From positions 2,304,001-2,368,000 of the forward strand of contig CP084167.1 in assembly GCA_021513715.1 (NCBI GenBank): a DNA stretch of 64,000 bases. The letters are read 5' to 3'. Of this stretch, positions 46,664 through 56,466 are shown in pieces. This DNA comes from Candidatus Heimdallarchaeum endolithica. GTDB lineage: Archaea > Asgardarchaeota > Heimdallarchaeia > Heimdallarchaeales > Heimdallarchaeaceae. Numbering within the stretch: position 1 is the stretch's first letter; each line of letters opens with the position of its first letter. The notes under the pieces were generated by a model. That model was not told the origin of the DNA and searched no databases. It was given only the letters and a program-made list of their open reading frames with translations. Position numbers and translations under genes: made by a program.

Positions 46664-47992
46664 ATGACTTCAAAAACAAGAATTTTAATAATGGGCGCAG
46701 CAGGAAGAGATTTTCACAACTTTAACACCGCCTTTAGAGATAATGAACAGTATGAAGTAGTAGCTTTTACAGCTACACAAATACCAGATATAGTTGATAG
46801 AAAATATCCCGCTGAATTAGCAGGAAAATTATATCCTGAAGGAATACCAATTTATGACGAAAAAGATTTACCACGTCTAATAAAAGAATTAAACGTGGAT
46901 GAAGTAGTATTCTCTTACAGCGATGTCCCACACACATACGTTATGCATAAGGCAGCACTAGTAAATGCTTGTGGAGCAAAATTCTCAATGATGGGAACAA
47001 AATATACACAAGTAAAAACAGACAAACCACTAATTAGCGTATGTGCAGTTAGAACAGGCTGTGGGAAATCACAAACAAGCAGAAAAATAGTTGACACTTT
47101 GCACAAAGCAGGAAAGAAAATAGTTGCAATAAGACATCCAATGCCATATGGCGATCTAGTAAAACAAAAAGTTCAAAGATTCGCAACATATGAAGACCTA
47201 GATAAACATGAATGTACAATCGAAGAAAGAGAAGAATATGAACCATACATTGATAGAGGACTAGTAATTTACGCAGGAGTAGACTATGAAGCAATATTAA
47301 GAGAAGCAGAAAAAGAAGCAGACGTAATATTATGGGATGGTGGAAATAATGACTTTCCATTCTATACATCAGACCAACACTTGAACATTGTAGTAGCTGA
47401 TCCACACAGAGTAGGGCACGAAAAATCTTACTACCCTGGAGAAACAAACGTAAATCTAGCAGATGTAATAGTAGTAAATAAAGTAGTAACAGCAAAATAC
47501 GAAGATATACTAAAATTAGAGGAAAATCTAAGAGAGATAAATCCCAATGCAACAATTATAGAAGCAGCATCACCAATATTCGTAGAAAAACCCGAACTAG
47601 TAAAAGGAAAAAGAGTACTAGTAATAGAAGATGGACCAACACTAACCCATGGAGAAATGAAATACGGAGCAGGAATAGTAGCTGCAAAAAGATTCGGAGC
47701 AAAAGAAATTATAGATCCAAGACCTTGGCTAGTAGGTTCACTAAAAGAAACATTCGAAAAATACCCAGAAATAGGAACACTATTACCAGCAATGGGATAC
47801 TTTGAACAACAACTAAAAGACCTAGAAGAAACAATAAATGCAGTAGATTGTGACGTAGTAGTATCAGCAACACCAATAGACCTAACAAGATTAATAAAAA
47901 TAAACAAACCAGTAGTACGTGTAAGATACGAACTAGAAGAAATAGGCTATCCAAAGTTAGAGGATATACTGAAAGAAAAAGGATATCTCTAA
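46664..47992 (+). CDS. COG2403 P-loop protein (cyclic 2,3-diphosphoglycerate synthetase-like; probable ArcE-type arginine synthetase)
   Basis: IMGAAGRDFHNFN, AVRTGCGKSQTS, RHPMPYG, WDGGNND, EDGPTLTHG, PAMGY. Confidence 0.8.
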   Translation: MTSKTRILIMGAAGRDFHNFNTAFRDNEQYEVVAFTATQIPDIVDRKYPAELAGKLYPEGIPIYDEKDLPRLIKELNVDEVVFSYSDVPHTYVMHKAALVNACGAKFSMMGTKYTQVKTDKPLISVCAVRTGCGKSQTSRKIVDTLHKAGKKIVAIRHPMPYGDLVKQKVQRFATYEDLDKHECTIEEREEYEPYIDRGLVIYAGVDYEAILREAEKEADVILWDGGNNDFPFYTSDQHLNIVVADPHRVGHEKSYYPGETNVNLADVIVVNKVVTAKYEDILKLEENLREINPNATIIEAASPIFVEKPELVKGKRVLVIEDGPTLTHGEMKYGAGIVAAKRFGAKEIIDPRPWLVGSLKETFEKYPEIGTLLPAMGYFEQQLKDLEETINAVDCDVVVSATPIDLTRLIKINKPVVRVRYELEEIGYPKLEDILKEKGYL

Positions 47993-48156
47993 ATTTTATC
48001 CTATTTTTTTTCAAAATATATTTTTAATAAATGCTATTATGCCATAATAAGACAAAATAAATTGAAACGACAAAATAAGAAAGAAAAAAATAAAAGAAAA
48101 AAAACTTTAAAAACAAAGGAAAAATAGAAGAAACGTAAAAGGAAAACAAAAACATA

Positions 48157-48249
48157 GCCGCGATAGCTTAGTCGGTAGAGCATTCGGCTGTTAATCTTAA
48201 GATTTGAATGCACTACGGGTGTAAAAAGAGCAGCAACCGAAAGGCCGAA
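48157..48249 (+). tRNA. tRNA-Asn(GTT) with a 42-nt intron at 37/38, 3'-truncated in the T-stem
   Basis: GCCGCGA acceptor 5' strand; D-arm GCTT/GAGC; anticodon stem TTCGG/CCGAA; anticodon GTT at 48190-48192; intron 48194-48235 with BHB (CTGT/GCAG helix, TAA and CAA bulges, TCTT/AAGA). No TTCG loop or TCGCGGC follows. Confidence 0.88.
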
Positions 48250-48657
48250 TTTCCTATTTTGTGTTTTAAAAATATTTAACACATAAACCAATTTTTAGGT
48301 CGGGAAATGCATAAGCAAATCTGTAAATTTTTTTATAAAAAATAAAAAATCACGACCAATATTAAGGGTGGAGTTGTTAGGAATGGTTTGCTAAAAATCT
48401 AGTATATTGCAAATTCAATTAAAATGGTTTAATAACTGTCAAAAGATCTATTTTTTTTTGAGATAATGAATGTAATTTAACTTACTGTTCTTGTTTATTT
48501 AACCCTTATTTTTTTCCAAACAATTTCTTCATTTTTAGGTATTGTTTTATTTTGTAAAAAGAATTCATCTATGTATTCACACATTCTACACTTTTTGTTA
48601 CAATATTTCTTGTCTTTAATTCTTGGATATAATTGTTTTTCATATTTTAGTCTTTCA

Positions 48658-48674
48658 ACAAAGGATATAGTCTT
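48658..48674. repeat. left target-site duplication ACAAAGGATATAGTCTT (17 bp)
   Basis: Identical to 49685-49701. Confidence 0.9.
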
Positions 48675-49684
48675 TGTTTACTCAATAGACTTGGGTTACA
48701 CTTTTGGGTACTAGAGAAACATAGGGGTGATTCATAAATCTTTCTCCTGGGGTGAGGAAGTTAAGAGATTGGTGAGGACGACTAAAATTGTAGTAAGAGC
48801 GATAGTAGGAGAGGTCGGGGTTGCAGTATTTTAGACCTAATCTTTCCATCTCACGGATGATTGTCCCATGTAGTCTTTCTACTTTTCCACATGTTTCAGG
48901 GTGAAAAACTCTAGCTCTGATGTGCTTTATTCCTTCTGTTTGACACCAACGGGAGAAGGTACTTGTTCCTCCTCTAACGGAAGAGAAGAGTGCTCCATTG
49001 TCAGTAAGTATAGACTCGGGGTAACCGTACTCTTTTATTGCTTCCTCTAGCAAACTTATTATCTGCTCTTTTTTTGGTGCAAAAGGGTGGAATTCAGCTC
49101 CCAGACAGAATCGTGAGTGGTCGTCTATCAAGGTTATGAGGTGGAGATGTTGTCCCTGTTCTTCTACCCAGAATGGTCCTTTCACATCTATTTGCCAGAG
49201 TTCGTTAGGTTTTTGACGTTCAAAACTCTTGTATCGAGGTCTTTTCCTCTTTTTTCTATTAACCCATAAAGGAAGACCTAACTCTTTTATTACTTTCGTC
49301 ACTGTCGTCTGAGAGAGTGCTTTTCCTTCTCTCTTCAACAAATAAGCTATCTTCTCCACATTCATTCCTTGTTTTATTCTTAACTCCCTTATCCTCTCTT
49401 TTAACTCCTCATCTACTTTCCTGTGTATAGTTTTTGGTCTGGAAGATCTATCTTTCCACCATACTCCTTCAGGGTTCTCTCTGAACCTCTTCAACCACTT
49501 ATACACAAACTTCCTACTCACCATATACTTGTGAGCTACCTCTTTTATCTTCTCTCCTTCCAAAGCTTTTTTAACCACAATCTTTCTTAGTTTCTCCAGG
49601 TTACGTTCGTTTTTGTTCATAATATATCACTTACCCACGTAACCCACTTCTATTTATTTGTTACCAATGTGAGTTGAGTATACA
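48675..49684 (-). mobile_element. IS481-family insertion sequence, 1,010 bp
   Basis: TGT...ACA ends; imperfect IRs (TGTTTACTCAA versus reverse complement TGTATACTCAA); single transposase; 17-bp TSD. Confidence 0.92.
48682..49620 (-). CDS. IS481-family DDE transposase
   Basis: N-terminal HTH (VSRKFVYKWLKRF), PNELWQIDVK, IDDHSR, TDNG, GKVERLHGT, YNFSRPHQSL. Confidence 0.95.
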   Translation of the reverse strand: MNKNERNLEKLRKIVVKKALEGEKIKEVAHKYMVSRKFVYKWLKRFRENPEGVWWKDRSSRPKTIHRKVDEELKERIRELRIKQGMNVEKIAYLLKREGKALSQTTVTKVIKELGLPLWVNRKKRKRPRYKSFERQKPNELWQIDVKGPFWVEEQGQHLHLITLIDDHSRFCLGAEFHPFAPKKEQIISLLEEAIKEYGYPESILTDNGALFSSVRGGTSTFSRWCQTEGIKHIRARVFHPETCGKVERLHGTIIREMERLGLKYCNPDLSYYRSYYNFSRPHQSLNFLTPGERFMNHPYVSLVPKSVTQVY

Positions 49685-49701
49685 ACAAAGGATATAGTCT
49701 T
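49685..49701. repeat. right target-site duplication ACAAAGGATATAGTCTT (17 bp)
   Basis: Identical to 48658-48674. Confidence 0.9.
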
Positions 49702-50514
49702 AGTAATCCTTTTTAGTTCTATATCCTCCTCAGTAAGATCTAATGTTCTTCTTTTCTGTTTATCATTGTTGTTTAGGTACCACAGTTCAGGAATAATTTC
49801 GATATTAGGTTTCTTTATTCTAATGATTTCAGAGTAGATTAGCACTTGTCTTTTGTCTCTAGGCGATTCTTTTCCTGTTTTTAGTTCTATCACTCTTATT
49901 GCTGTTCGATCTACTGTCCAAGCTAAAATGTCTATTCGACCTGTTAAAAGAAATTTTTCTGATAATTCATACTCAATTTTGTATTCGGTTCCTATAACAA
50001 GAGAAATTAGTTTTCCTCTATTATTCTCTTCAACTAAAGTAGAACAAAACATAGCCAAAGTGCGTAAATTAAAATAAAGCTTATCGTCAAACTTTACTTC
50101 TTTTTCTCTTTCAATTATACAATCAAAGTCCTTCTCTCCATCAGGAAAGAAAAATCTTTCTGTCAACTCATATAAAGCGGTAAAAAAAGATTCTTTGACG
50201 GATAGTTTTTCGTGTATGTAAAAATGTTGTACTAAGTCGAAATTGCTTGATAAAACAGATTGTAGAAGTAGATGGTAAAAAGTTCATAGCTCCATAGATC
50301 TTGAAGAAGAAGCATACTCTCTCAATTTATTCATTTTAAGTAGAACTGCAAAATATGGTCTTATTGTACAAAAATCATCTTCAAGAACATCAGTAACGCT
50401 AATACTAACATGTTTTTGGAACATGATATTCACGCTAATCTTTAATCTTTTAATTAATTTATAAAAAAGAAAAAAACATAGTCAAAAGTAACACATCTTA
50501 TTTTTTTTATTATT

Positions 50515-51969
50515 ATGTTTATATATCGAAATGTTATTTTTGAATTTGAAATGGCTTCAAGAACACATATTCAAGAATATGAATCATGTATTGTTTTCCA
50601 GAAATTTATGATCGAAGAAAACATACTTGTTAATTTCTGTAAACATATCGATTTTGGCATAGATGGTGAGCTGGATATATTACAAGAAGAGCCAAGGGAT
50701 GATTTTTACGAAGAACGTAGAGCAGTAGATATAGATTTAAGGAAAAAGGCTTTTGTTCAACTCAAATCTAAAAGAGAAAAAAGTAGGGTAAATGAAGATG
50801 GAACTGTTTCATATAGCTTTAAAAAACGACATTTAAAACTATGGCAAAATTCGCCCATACCCGTTTTTGTTTTTTTGGTTTACCTTGATGACTCAAAAGA
50901 GATCTATTGGACATATGTTGATATTGACTTACAAATAGAAGAAGGGGAATCGGAATGCCAAAACCTTACTCTTGAAAAACTAGAAGGGGGATGTAGAAAT
51001 AAATTCAATAAGATAATTGAGGAGCATTATAAAAAAACAGGATACAAATATAATGTCTCAACAAAATTACCAATGTTTAGAGATTTTATTGAAAGGAGAA
51101 AGCAAGGTTTAGAACTAAGAAAAAGTTTGATTTTCAAGGAATTAAATCCAATAGAAGATAAAAAAGCTAAAATGTTAAGTCCTTTTCCTAAATCAGGATT
51201 AAGAAAAAAAATCTCATTCTCAGAATATGCCTTATCTATAGATGATTTCTATGAAAAAATAGATGACGATGAATACATTAATGAGTTTTTTAGCCGTAAA
51301 TCAAGGATAGAAAGCAATATTATTGAGAGTGTATATAAAGCAGAAGTAGCAAAGATAAAATATGATCTTGTAAATAATCACGAAACTTTTTTTGCTGATA
51401 GTTGGATTGAAATATTTGAAAATATAACAAAAATAACAGAGGAATATACAAGACCTATTTTGTTTATTAATAGTGAACTAAGAGATATTATTCGAGGGAT
51501 TCCTGCAGCAGATAGACCTAGTCTAGTAAATCAAGTTCTTCATAATTCAAAAGAAGATGCAATATCACATTCTCATTATGAAAACATAATAAATGGAAAA
51601 AATGTTTATTTCTATTTCTTTTATATTCCTAGACACTTAACTAAAAAGTTTCCTGTGTTAAACGATATTAAAATAATTATTTTAGATAGAGAAAAGGTAA
51701 AATATATTGTTAAAGAGCCATTAAGATTAGAATGGAGGACGATTACTAGGCCAGTTCAAGTTGATATTATCGATGGCGCAGCATATAAAGTTACAAAAAA
51801 AGAAGAAGAGTGGGATTGGTTTGACTTTACTTGTTATACTGTAGGAGAAATAAGAAATGAAGGACCAATAAAAATATACAAATTTTCCGAAGATGAGAAA
51901 AAGGAATTACAAGACTTTGAAGATAGACTAATAAAACTTACAAAATCAAGAAAAATTACCAAGGGATAA
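50515..51969 (+). CDS. DUF4365-type PD-(D/E)XK domain protein with unknown C-terminal region
   Basis: DFGIDGELDI...FVQLKS...HLKLW...PVFVFLV...IYW. Confidence 0.75.
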   Translation: MFIYRNVIFEFEMASRTHIQEYESCIVFQKFMIEENILVNFCKHIDFGIDGELDILQEEPRDDFYEERRAVDIDLRKKAFVQLKSKREKSRVNEDGTVSYSFKKRHLKLWQNSPIPVFVFLVYLDDSKEIYWTYVDIDLQIEEGESECQNLTLEKLEGGCRNKFNKIIEEHYKKTGYKYNVSTKLPMFRDFIERRKQGLELRKSLIFKELNPIEDKKAKMLSPFPKSGLRKKISFSEYALSIDDFYEKIDDDEYINEFFSRKSRIESNIIESVYKAEVAKIKYDLVNNHETFFADSWIEIFENITKITEEYTRPILFINSELRDIIRGIPAADRPSLVNQVLHNSKEDAISHSHYENIINGKNVYFYFFYIPRHLTKKFPVLNDIKIIILDREKVKYIVKEPLRLEWRTITRPVQVDIIDGAAYKVTKKEEEWDWFDFTCYTVGEIRNEGPIKIYKFSEDEKKELQDFEDRLIKLTKSRKITKG

Positions 51970-51990: not shown

Positions 51991-52290
51991 TTATTCGTCT
52001 ATTATTTTTTGTATTTCTTGTATAAATTCTGCTACTTTCATTCCTTTTTCTGTTAGGCTAAAAACACGTTTATTATAAGGTGGTAAGTATTCCTCTTCTA
52101 TGAGTTCAAGGACGAGAAGTTTGTTAAGTGAAGTATAAACAGATGTTTGTGCTATACCAGGTATATTATCTATCAGTTGTGTGATCATTGCTTTTTTTTC
52201 AGATAATAGGTATAACAGTATCCTAAGAGCTCCTTTTTGTTCAAGCAAAGAAAGGGAACCTTCTCGTTCTCTCATTCTTCGGTATCCCAT
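51991..52290 (-). CDS. winged-HTH regulator (HxlR/MarR-like)
   Basis: LRILLYL...SVYTSLNKLLVLELIEE...FSLTEKGMKVA. Confidence 0.85.
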   Translation of the reverse strand: MGYRRMREREGSLSLLEQKGALRILLYLLSEKKAMITQLIDNIPGIAQTSVYTSLNKLLVLELIEEEYLPPYNKRVFSLTEKGMKVAEFIQEIQKIIDE

Positions 52291-52460
52291 ACCCTTAAAC
52301 TGTCTAAGAGCTAAAAAATATTCTTATACGCATAATGTATGCATATATACAAAGGTTTTATATATCGGTAGCCATATAATACTTATAGGTGGATAGTGAG
52401 CGACGGAAAAAAATGAAAACAACCTAAGGAGTGATGAAAAAAGAATGATGGGTCAAAGAT

Positions 52461-52754
52461 ATGAGAAGAAAAGAAGAAAAAAACGTATATACGCCTTCTT
52501 CTGTAGTCTGTTCCGCATATAAATATATAGGGGACAAAGAGTTAGGTGTTTTGTGGATAAGTATTCAACTAGAGGGTGTAAAGCCTGATTTTTATAGTTT
52601 TGTTAGTAGATCATTTATTGGAAAAAAGTTTCTTTTATTTTTTTCTGCCTTTATAAATTATTTTTATGATAATATTGTAAACAACAAAACAAGAGGAGGA
52701 AAGAGAAGGATTTCTTCACTTCAAAAAAGTGAAACCGTGTGGTGGAGTTTATGA
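52461..52754 (+). CDS. hypothetical protein
   Basis: 97-aa ORF overlapping the next start; no motif recognised. Confidence 0.35.
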   Translation: MRRKEEKNVYTPSSVVCSAYKYIGDKELGVLWISIQLEGVKPDFYSFVSRSFIGKKFLLFFSAFINYFYDNIVNNKTRGGKRRISSLQKSETVWWSL

Positions 52755-53923
52755 CTGTAAGTGAAAGGGGAAAGGATAAGTTTTTTTCAAATGTCTATTA
52801 TGATTTTAAAGGGGAAAAAAATCGACTCTCTACCGAAATAATTCCGTTTGAGTTTGAAGCAGTAATACGAGAGGAACATCTGATTACTGTTAAAGATATT
52901 AGAATAAAGGCAGGAATAAAATATCATCTGCATATTAAAAGTTTGGAGACAGATCAAAAATTACAAGGAGTAGACCTTTTAATTAGAAAACGTGGAGAGA
53001 AGATAGTTTTTACTTTGTCGCATCGAATGAAAAAACTGTTCAAAAAAGGAGAAAAAGTAAAGGTTAGTATCTTTTGTCCAACAGAGGAGTTTTACGGAAG
53101 AAAACAAAAAGAAGGAATAAGAGATGTATCCATCCACAACGATGAGATCTTGTGTATAGCTTTTATCTATCAAATGGGAGAAAATAAAGGACTAATCAGT
53201 CTCAATAGCGAAAATGAAGAGTATTTGTCAAAATTAGAAGGAATACAAGAGACTTTTCATATCTTGGATGATAGAATAATAAGGAGAGATGAGGAAGGAA
53301 ATGTCCCCTTTGAAGCTAAAAGTTACTCTAATTATGCAATAATAAGATACTACACGATAATGAACAGGTATGATTTCATAAAGAATCAAGAAAATCACTC
53401 TTCTGTTTATACTTATTTCGTAGGAGATGAAAAAATCCTTCCTACAGTAACATCCGTCAAAGCTTGTTTAGTGATAGTAATAAACAAGTCCTTGATTCCT
53501 ATATGTCTAGAAGAGAGAGTAAGAAAAGAAATAAACATGTTTCTGGACAAAAAAATGCCTTTATTTAAAATACAAGACCAACTTTATGAATTGAAAAGAG
53601 TAATTTTACAATATATTAGAGCGTATTATAGACCTATCATAGCAGAAGAGACGTACAACGAGTTCAACATTAAATCAATGATTTTTCATTTAAACCGCAA
53701 AACTTCTCCTGTATACAAAGCAATTATATCCCTCGTATCTTTTGATAACTACATCTCAGTAGAAAAACTGGTGAACTATGTAGAAGAGAAGTATAAAATA
53801 AAAGATAGACGTTACATCAGTGAATCGTTAACAGAACTGATAAATCTTGGAATTATAAAAAGAAAGGTTGAGGACGGAAAAGTAGGGGTAGGGGTTGTGA
53901 GATCATATGATGAAAAAAGATGA
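52739..53923 (+). CDS. hypothetical protein with C-terminal wHTH-like domain
   Basis: C-terminus ISVEKLVNYV...ISESLTELINLGII; overlaps the ATPase start, suggesting an operon. Confidence 0.7.
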   Translation: MVEFMTVSERGKDKFFSNVYYDFKGEKNRLSTEIIPFEFEAVIREEHLITVKDIRIKAGIKYHLHIKSLETDQKLQGVDLLIRKRGEKIVFTLSHRMKKLFKKGEKVKVSIFCPTEEFYGRKQKEGIRDVSIHNDEILCIAFIYQMGENKGLISLNSENEEYLSKLEGIQETFHILDDRIIRRDEEGNVPFEAKSYSNYAIIRYYTIMNRYDFIKNQENHSSVYTYFVGDEKILPTVTSVKACLVIVINKSLIPICLEERVRKEINMFLDKKMPLFKIQDQLYELKRVILQYIRAYYRPIIAEETYNEFNIKSMIFHLNRKTSPVYKAIISLVSFDNYISVEKLVNYVEEKYKIKDRRYISESLTELINLGIIKRKVEDGKVGVGVVRSYDEKR

Positions 53924-54707
53924 ACAAGGAAAAGTAGTGAGTTTTTTCAGTTTTTCAGGAGGAGTAGGTAAAACGACTTTGGTTGTTAACATTGCTAAAA
54001 TGTTAGCCGAACAAGGAAAGAAAATAATAGTGCTAGAACTAGAATTACTCTCACCTAAATACCAAACTATTTTTGGTTTTAATCCTGCGAAATCTATAGA
54101 TGAACTATATATGCAAAACTATAGAAACAATCTTGAACTAGAAACGGTTGATAGAATAATTAAGAAAAGTATAATTACAAACGATTATGGAGTAGATTTC
54201 ATTATCCCTACTGCTCCCACAACAATAGAAGATCTAATTAACAGAGATAGAGACTATAATCATAAAGATTTTGCAAACTTTATAAGAAATTTACTAGCTT
54301 ATCTGAGGAAGAAATACGAGCTAGTGTTGATAGACTCTCCAAGTATAACGAACACCGAAATAATGAGTGTTTTACTGCTATCAGATAAATTAGTTTATGT
54401 CTGTATTCCCCCTTTGGAAGATATATCTGAGGGAATAGAACAAATAAAAAAATTTCCAGAGAGTACATTCATCGATCCAATTGATGTGATAATAAACAAA
54501 GTACCAGTAGAAACAGAAAAAAAAAGACAAATATTGGAAAGAAAAATGAAAGAACGACTAAAGAAAGAAAAAATAAACAAAGTAAGAATAGTAGAATTAT
54601 CACTAAATTATATAAAAGAGAATGTAAAAGAAAGGAGAATATACATAGAAAAAGAAAAGGAAAAAAACATTTATCAAACACTGCTAAACTACAGTAAAGA
54701 ATTATAA
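53907..54707 (+). CDS. MinD/ParA-family ATPase with atypical motifs
   Basis: VVSFFSFSGGVGKTT, NIAKMLA, YELVLIDSP, IINKV. Confidence 0.88.
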   Translation: MMKKDEQGKVVSFFSFSGGVGKTTLVVNIAKMLAEQGKKIIVLELELLSPKYQTIFGFNPAKSIDELYMQNYRNNLELETVDRIIKKSIITNDYGVDFIIPTAPTTIEDLINRDRDYNHKDFANFIRNLLAYLRKKYELVLIDSPSITNTEIMSVLLLSDKLVYVCIPPLEDISEGIEQIKKFPESTFIDPIDVIINKVPVETEKKRQILERKMKERLKKEKINKVRIVELSLNYIKENVKERRIYIEKEKEKNIYQTLLNYSKEL

Positions 54708-54860: not shown

Positions 54861-56243
54861 CTATTTTCTCTTATTTTTTAAAAGAAAGAGGAGATTTTTA
54901 ACCGAGAAAATAGAAACGAAGGATAAAGGAGTGAGAACGATTATCAAGTACATTATTTGGTTTTTGATTAAGGGATTGGTATGGTTATAAAATTCTTCAA
55001 GATTGGTTAAACCATCACCATCAAGGTCAAGATAAGAGTCATTAGTTAAAGGGTCAGAACCATAATGAACTTCCCAACCGTCAGGTAAAAGGTCTCCATC
55101 CGAATCAGGATTCCAGGGGTCAGTACCATAAAGATGATCTTCAAGATAATCTAGTAGCATGTCTTCGTCGAAATCGCTTCCACGAGGAAAAGGGTCAAAA
55201 GCTTTAGCTTTTCCATCGATAGGGTAAGGTTCAGAGCCATCGGTATCTGACCAATAGTTACCAATAGAATAGACGGGGTCAAACCAGGTGTTATTCGCTC
55301 CATCATCAAAAGCTTGAGAAAGATTATTACCTTTATTGTTCTTGAAAAAAACGTTACGTGAGATAAAGTTGTTAGAAGCAGCTTTGTGAACAAACAGTCC
55401 ATACTCACTGTTATTGAACAAAACATTAGAAGAAAGGTGATTGTTAGAACCACCTAAAAATATCCCACTTTTTCTGCTCTCGGAAATAACGTTATCGGTA
55501 ACGGAGTTGTTATCCCCACTTACGCTTATTCCTTTATAAAAAGTATAAGTAATAGTATTATTTGTTATGATGTTATTATGTCCTGAACCATAAATTCCAT
55601 GTGCTCCACTATACGATATGTAGTTATTAGTAATAATGTTAAAACAACTTTCAGTCATATCAATACTTTTTCCACTATTATGAGAAATATTATTACCACT
55701 AACCAAATTGTGAGAACCGTGTTGGATTCTTATTGCTCCCCGAGTATGAGTTATAAAATTGTTAATAACGACGTTATCAGAACTGTATAAACGTATTAAT
55801 TCGCGAGAATAAGTTCGATTGGTTCCACCAACAAGAGTGGAACCCTCAAGGTGAAGATGGGCGTTATCCCATGCTCCAATATCCCAAGGACTGTCAGTGT
55901 AAGTTAGAATGGTTGTATCATAGATCTCTAAAGAAGAATTGTCTATAGCATAAATACTTAGAGAACCCACTCTATCATGTTCAATAACAATAAAACAATT
56001 ACGAAGAATAAGAGAGCCTTCGTCCTTGATAAGAACTCTGTTGATAAGTTTAATAAACTCGTTTTCAACTACAGTAGGTTCAGTAATGTTCCAAATACCT
56101 TCCGGAGGAGGAAAGGTTCCTGAGCTAGATGCAGAAGAAGTAACTAGAGGACTAAAAGTAGGTGAAAAGAGCAGGAGAGAAGAAAAAATCACAAGTAAAA
56201 GCACGAACGAATTATTTTTCCTTTTTGTTAGAATAAAAAGCAT
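54861..56243 (-). CDS. cell-surface protein: right-handed beta-helix (NosD/CASH) plus DxDxDG Ca-binding repeats and a C-terminal TM
   Basis: Signal peptide; GIx[ILV]xGxxNxIxxNxI repeats; GNYWSD; DSDGDLLPDGWE and DLDGDGLTNLEE; TM followed by KNKRK. Confidence 0.85.
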   Translation of the reverse strand: MLFILTKRKNNSFVLLLVIFSSLLLFSPTFSPLVTSSASSSGTFPPPEGIWNITEPTVVENEFIKLINRVLIKDEGSLILRNCFIVIEHDRVGSLSIYAIDNSSLEIYDTTILTYTDSPWDIGAWDNAHLHLEGSTLVGGTNRTYSRELIRLYSSDNVVINNFITHTRGAIRIQHGSHNLVSGNNISHNSGKSIDMTESCFNIITNNYISYSGAHGIYGSGHNNIITNNTITYTFYKGISVSGDNNSVTDNVISESRKSGIFLGGSNNHLSSNVLFNNSEYGLFVHKAASNNFISRNVFFKNNKGNNLSQAFDDGANNTWFDPVYSIGNYWSDTDGSEPYPIDGKAKAFDPFPRGSDFDEDMLLDYLEDHLYGTDPWNPDSDGDLLPDGWEVHYGSDPLTNDSYLDLDGDGLTNLEEFYNHTNPLIKNQIMYLIIVLTPLSFVSIFSVKNLLFLLKNKRK

Positions 56244-56378: not shown

Positions 56379-56466
56379 AAACGTCTATAAAAACTATCGA
56401 CATTTTTGAGAAACGTCTATAAAAACTATCGACATTTTTGAGAAACGTCTATAAAAACTATCGACA
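56379..56466. repeat. 32-bp direct tandem repeat AAACGTCTATAAAAACTATCGACATTTTTGAG, about 2.75 copies
   Basis: Exact copies at 56379-56410 and 56411-56442, partial copy 56443-56466; no spacers. Confidence 0.95.

Follow-up and report, generated by a model that had tools for sequence, protein, structure and literature searches.

Within the window, a 64,000-nucleotide stretch of the Candidatus Heimdallarchaeum endolithica genome (G000; closed, one contig of 3.33 Mb that terminates in tRNA-Gly(CCC); window position 1 is G000 2304001), positions 48157-48249 read as the front part of the host tRNA-Asn(GUU) gene, with its promoter and a 42-nt BHB intron (Table 1). The T-loop, acceptor 3' strand and CCA are all missing. 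The 93-nt match to a tRNA gene (E 8e-27) shows that the remnant's tRNA identity is not chance, and an AT-rich, TATA-like box probably lies upstream at about 48105-48112. The truncation agrees with an earlier, sequence-only reading: the 3' end, lost here, is intact at element-free sites. That reading had also called the 5' part and intron perfect. Worked out by hand, the intron forms a canonical BHB, with a central helix CTGT/GCAG containing one G-U and an outer helix TCTT/AAGA, but ViennaRNA favours a register shifted by one base, and the terminal GAA exactly matches neither full allele, so that the break could be placed at any position between 48 and 51.

ARAGORN called no tRNA in the whole window, a low-threshold run gave only noise, and an Rfam scan of the region returned a single unrelated match below threshold. 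Exact and fuzzy searches found one close match to the remnant in the genome, an intact tRNA-Asn gene 38 kb away; exact, fuzzy and BLAST searches of the closed genome found no orphan T-loop/acceptor piece, extending genome-wide the absence first noticed nearby. The fragment has no cloverleaf fold (z -0.2), whereas the intact far copy does fold as one. We infer that the remnant is a dead 5' piece, unable to yield a tRNA, that is probably still transcribed and possibly spliced.

Several tRNA genes of this genome contain T-loop introns, and ARAGORN misses or miscalls them (three tRNA-Ala, Thr-GGU, Lys-CUU and Glu-CUC). A second intron in the T-arm therefore had to be excluded here, along with the split or trans-spliced tRNA that had been suggested for the locus. 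Archaeal split tRNAs occur in Nanoarchaeum and Caldivirga; like them, the remnant is part of a tRNA that has a promoter to itself and one end able to form a BHB, but it has no partner piece and no complementary leader, and an intact gene of the isotype is present. No separate gene for the missing 3' exon exists anywhere in the closed genome, relatives are unsplit at this site, and a product of this 5' exon and the far 3' exon would have an A7-G66 mismatch. At the sequence level a split tRNA is refuted, and we give it and the T-arm intron next to no credence.

The cassette and its far end

The remnant marks the left edge of a 38.4-kb cassette, namely the Otus/Ephialtes "aloposon" that has been described in Ca. 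Heimdallarchaeum (Wu et al., 2022; PMC8813620). As in the published elements, tandem genes of 3,000-6,000 aa (here 4225 and 5541 aa) follow four consecutive genes that include a MinD/ParA ATPase, and a tRNA gene lies just downstream of the giant genes, the CCA of tRNA-Asn being 32 bp from the Ephialtes stop. Because the element fits this definition and is 91% identical to that of H. aukensis (G001), it is most likely Aloposon2 of Wu et al. (2022). We found no description of a truncated tRNA-Asn border in the aloposon literature searched.

Table 1. Features of the tRNA-Asn locus and cassette (window positions unless marked G000)
Feature	Position	Strand	Remarks
Promoter/upstream region, host tRNA-Asn	48093..48156	+	64 bp, identical (inverted) to far-copy promoter
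5' exon, host tRNA-Asn(GUU), positions 1-37	48157..48193	+	A at position 7; anticodon GTT 48190-48192
Canonical 37/38 BHB intron, 42 nt	48194..48235	+	early part resembles common host allele, late part the inverted copy
3' exon remnant	48236..48249	+	positions 38-48 (48236-48246), then GAA 48247-48249; left cassette junction
AT-rich spacer, 154 bp	48250..48403		weak hairpin
Non-coding left-end segment	48404..48674		conserved among aloposon copies
IS481-family element	48675..49684	-	secondary insertion; 100% identical copies elsewhere in genome
PD-(D/E)XK (Cas4-like) nuclease gene piece	49654..50166	-	interrupted here; 303 aa in H. aukensis
DUF4365 protein gene	50515..51969	+	
Aloposon four-gene block	51991..54707		HxlR-like wHTH (-); 97-aa and 394-aa genes, MinD/ParA ATPase (+)
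Beta-helix (NosD-like) surface protein gene	54861..56243	-	
Giant gene Otus, 4225 aa	57052..64000 (start; runs past window)	+	tandem with Ephialtes
Giant gene Ephialtes, 5541 aa	to G000 2390357, beyond window		tandem partner of Otus
Intact intron-containing tRNA-Asn(GUU)	G000 2390390-2390507	-	C7-G66; T-stem AAAGG/CCTTT; CCA encoded
Far promoter copy and ~40 bp non-host DNA	beyond far tRNA-Asn		host resumes at G000 2390612

No homologue of the spacer after the remnant was found in the G000 genome or at other aloposon ends. The AT-rich hairpin noted there earlier is present, but it is modest (z -2.4; 4 of 200 shuffles) and not common to other aloposon ends. As a candidate terminal repeat it matches the end of the Ephialtes gene at 17 of 18 positions, uniquely in the genome; we rejected it, as 2% of composition-matched windows equal this match and it was chosen post hoc. 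The IS481 insertion into the cassette is recent, and its flanks (48655-48674 and 49685-49700) carry an unusually long duplication of ~16 bp. Between the beta-helix and giant genes, 56379-56466 holds ~2.8 exact copies of a 32-bp repeat. The final 4.2 kb of the cassette are 63-77% identical to the H. aukensis copy versus 86-99.9% over the remainder, so that the right end, tRNA included, forms a distinct module.

The far tRNA-Asn is the only full tRNA-Asn gene in the genome. Both copies face into the element in an inverted arrangement, their 64 upstream bases are identical, and 12 of 93 gene positions differ, which argues against a simple recent duplication. Relative to the common allele the far copy has a different intron and compensated changes at 7:66, 49:65 and 50:64, the latter indicating a gene under selection. 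The two copies share identical inverted tracts of 70, 33 and 26 bp, and homologous recombination between them could flip the element. No host upstream region sampled matches the ~40 bp that precede the far promoter, a piece that holds a partial repeat of the promoter start.

Of the possibilities raised by the sequence-only reading, an insertion that leaves the gene unrestored and puts its 3' piece at the far end fails, that piece having been deleted. The suggestion that the element supplies a tRNA at its other end holds insofar as an intact tRNA stands there; that tRNA is complete, inverted, of a different allele and served by its own promoter, not one rebuilt from the missing 3' piece. The survey of other tRNA-Asn copies that it proposed thus yields exactly one full gene. 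As this gene has no full counterpart, it presumably provides all Asn decoding, and host survival would depend on the element's tRNA. Clean loss of the entire cassette would then be lethal and the tRNA end locked in, with internal deletions still possible. We are confident of this present-day anatomy and of the dependence on the far copy.

Misassembly was a concern, as inverted repeats border the element and the 48249/48250 junction itself is absent from independent contigs. Logan contigs assembled from two read sets match the genome at 100% over both the right junction and the left flank, and at this locus every one of them breaks off exactly 30 bp inside the promoter repeat. A k=31 assembly graph ends where a repeat has two contexts, so this stop is expected if the promoter repeat has two. 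The two tRNA-Asn copies moreover differ at 12 sites, and the assembly is long-read with Illumina polishing (PMC8813620). An artefact is very unlikely. Look-ups of element proteins in reads returned nothing for the left junction; a 34-kb JGI contig contains the element, and the part of it examined shows neither end.

Empty sites and tRNA-Asn alleles

H. aukensis and four metagenome contigs (L022, L079, L080 and L081; 97-98% identical to G000, conspecific) carry an element-free site with intact tRNA-Asn, in the order cPGS-like gene, promoter, tRNA-Asn, sequence resuming at G000 2390612, and helicase gene. The G000 state is therefore derived. Relative to the empty site it has gained ~38,360 bp, a stretch that includes the intact copy, its promoter and the ~40 bp of non-host DNA, and has lost 27-35 bp, a range that reflects ambiguity at positions 49-51 and a T-run. 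The lost target comprised all or most of the T-arm, the acceptor 3' strand, CCA and two further bases. Both junctions lie within ~30 bp of the target, and neither a target duplication nor a shared core was found at them. No other carrier of the tRNA-Asn cassette was found among 47 genomes of the order, viral contigs and GTDB.

The neighbourhood has features of its own. Flanking genes (window 46664-47992; G000 2390612-2393927) are 93-100% identical to H. aukensis versus a background of ~85%, an identity that suggests recent interspecies exchange around the locus. In L021 and L083 unrelated DNA lies right after tRNA-Asn or before a 5'-truncated helicase gene, from which the site appears to be an insertion hotspot.

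Two allele types of the gene circulate in natural populations. H. aukensis, L022, L080 and, in a variant form, L021 carry type A; type C, the allele of the inverted copy, also occupies the native, element-free site in L081 (one difference) and L079 (two differences), where the upstream host flanks are identical to those of type A strains. The native tRNA-Asn of L079 (3300-3430) has an A7-G66 acceptor-stem mismatch, and would either have arisen by recombination between two alleles or be an assembly chimera of strains that occur together. The remnant is itself a mosaic, type A up to mid-intron and type C thereafter. Three different 5' crossover points are seen among the alleles, showing that they recombine within the gene in nature, a proposed route to intron gain and to split tRNAs when alleles carry different introns.

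We also considered that a divergent allele marks an element-borne gene, a notion weakened by about a dozen other tRNAs that differ as strongly between the two species. Divergence between G000 and G001 is bimodal: many tRNA genes are identical and about a dozen very different (Tyr, iMet, Ile-GAU, CAU, Gly-UCC, Cys, Asn, Ala-UGC, Phe, Ser-GCU, His and Glu-UUC). Those other than Asn differ at 8-25 positions, many of them compensated, or by intron gain or loss. This pattern suggests whole-allele replacement or diversifying selection.

Origin of the insertion

We propose that the cassette arrived as an aloposon whose right end carried a full tRNA-Asn gene, of a different allele and with its own promoter, and that it would have replaced the last 27-35 bp of the resident gene, head-to-head with the host promoter. 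More tentatively, its source may have been another chromosome where the element sat directly after tRNA-Asn, the gene being carried along, and joining may have occurred by break-and-repair, not by conservative site-specific recombination. We assign this account, origin included, a probability of roughly 0.5, and favour it over inversion in place with duplication. For an incoming cassette count the intact, compensated far copy, the empty sites, the junctions within ~30 bp of the target, the 12/93 differences, the 40-bp non-host piece, the divergent 4.2-kb right-end module, the position of the H. aukensis element close to the CCA of tRNA-Gly(UCC), and type C at two native element-free sites. Against it count the failure to find a free form or second genome with the cassette, or any insertion enzyme, and the differing junctions of related insertions. 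The two copies also share derived sites, at position -62 and in a 26-bp 3' intron tract, which fit shared ancestry of the copies within this lineage or gene conversion afterwards, and the inverted allele may be a mere host polymorphism.

These shared sites are equally a point for the alternative, in which the element first entered after the native tRNA-Asn CCA, as at Gly-UCC, and the promoter-tRNA-element block then inverted via staggered breaks or template switching, leaving a duplicate promoter and 5' part, with allele differences acquired later by short recombination tracts with other strains. Such a history would explain the same isotype at both ends without targeting, and fits the host sequence picking up 2-7 bp past the native CCA, the partial promoter-start repeat in the 40-bp piece, and the short A/C mosaics that do occur at this gene (L079). 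A neighbouring block is likewise inverted between the two species: G000 2393973-2395286, with tRNA-Ala(UGC) and a glycosyltransferase gene, and merely 81% identical. However, inversion in place requires at least three events, its un-inverted state is found in no strain, nearly all of the 12 differences in 93 nt are alleles of other strains, and the far upstream piece differs from the host upstream region. We consider it a serious but less probable alternative; present-day function, with the cell dependent on the far copy, would be the same as with an incoming cassette.

Classical or tRNA-dependent site-specific integration into the T-arm, by a recombinase acting in trans and with later deletion of the 3' half, was weighed for two reasons: the break falls at the T-stem, in a region that integrases are known to target (PMC8371274), and ordinary 3' att repeats occur in this genome at tRNA-Pro(UGG), Leu(UAG) and Lys(CUU; with a diverged intron copy), at G000 2085184-2092541 and 2516104-2517342. 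The Pro and Lys repeats enclose aloposon-derived pieces (a ParA fragment and beta-helix gene; the tail of the 394-aa gene). The cassette junctions, in contrast, have no shared core, direct repeat or 3' half. No tyrosine recombinase gene (PF00589) lies within the element or close to it; the single PF00589 gene of the genome is distant, and the search of H. aukensis turned up none. We judge site-specific integration improbable.

Related insertions have junctions of several kinds, so that no single insertion rule emerges. In H. aukensis, 23 bp separate the end of the element from the CCA of another tRNA, Gly(UCC). At G000 2102370-2103808, between tRNA-Gly(UCC) and Gly(GCC), lies an internally deleted aloposon relic with both ends kept and joined at a short microhomology; a relic with both ends implies that the element did not simply leave by cut-and-paste. 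At a second G000 aloposon (about 2397950 and 2437470), upstream of tRNA-Phe, the sequence TTTTGTCCCGTTTT forms a 14-bp direct repeat that is single in H. aukensis and would define the ends of this element precisely, while a small aloposon relic at tRNA-Pro has an ordinary 35-bp 3' repeat. For an element without a recognised mobility enzyme, the exact ends and empty site at tRNA-Asn make the chemistry of insertion testable.

Known systems and the variable end of Ephialtes

The closest functional parallel is the tRNA-dependent lysogeny of the actinobacteriophages Fionnbharth, cluster L and Gaia (PMC10865867). There, as here, a host tRNA gene is destroyed and not rebuilt, and a same-isotype tRNA of the element compensates: the host tRNA-Asn is disrupted and restored at neither junction, and the tRNA inside the insert lies between junctions set by the empty site. 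Integration of the phages relies on a tyrosine integrase and an 8-11-bp core and leaves both halves in place (PMC10865867), whereas the cassette has no integrase and no core, deleted 27-35 bp, and sits in an archaeal host. Unlike theirs, its replacement tRNA is closely homologous, has an identical promoter and thereby gives rise to terminal inverted repeats. The cassette thus seems to work like tRNA-dependent lysogeny minus two defining features, the integrase and the conservative core. The replacement of a tRNA by the element that breaks it would extend to an archaeal lineage close to eukaryotes, and the published aloposon "integration site" tRNA is in fact inside inserted DNA, the true target lying broken 38 kb away.

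Caldiarchaeum tRNA-Thr-F and the pNOB8-/pTN3-type 5'-half att sites (PMC3293823; PMC8371274) share with the cassette an intron-bearing 5' tRNA fragment on one side, a complete gene of a different allele on the opposite side, and allele heterogeneity in the natural population. They differ in having direct repeats and an adjacent recombinase gene; the repeat at the far border of the cassette is inverted, and no such gene was found.

The conserved body of Ephialtes gives way to a variable C-terminal region, identity dropping sharply at residue ~4225. This region has no match in Pfam, Atlas or a 1.8-billion-protein search for distant homologues, and two structure predictions (pLDDT 34 and 40) were too poor for a fold search. 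Its architecture, a variable tip next to a tRNA gene in the place expected for an immunity gene, prompts a highly speculative reading: the C-terminal 1,300 residues might be a tRNA-cutting toxin against related cells and the divergent tRNA a resistant allele serving as immunity factor. If so, aloposons would swap host tRNA genes as part of a strategy, which would explain the dozen or so sharply differing tRNAs and the spread of the element's allele into native sites.

Elsewhere in the genome, ARAGORN, Rfam and pattern searches recognised no tRNA-Lys(UUU), which may be hidden by unusual introns or split. The tRNA genes with T-loop introns lie at G000 1989158, 2073121, 2394084, 2168076, 2516104 and 2015339, and the presence of such introns differs from H. 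aukensis in Lys-CUU and Glu-UUC.
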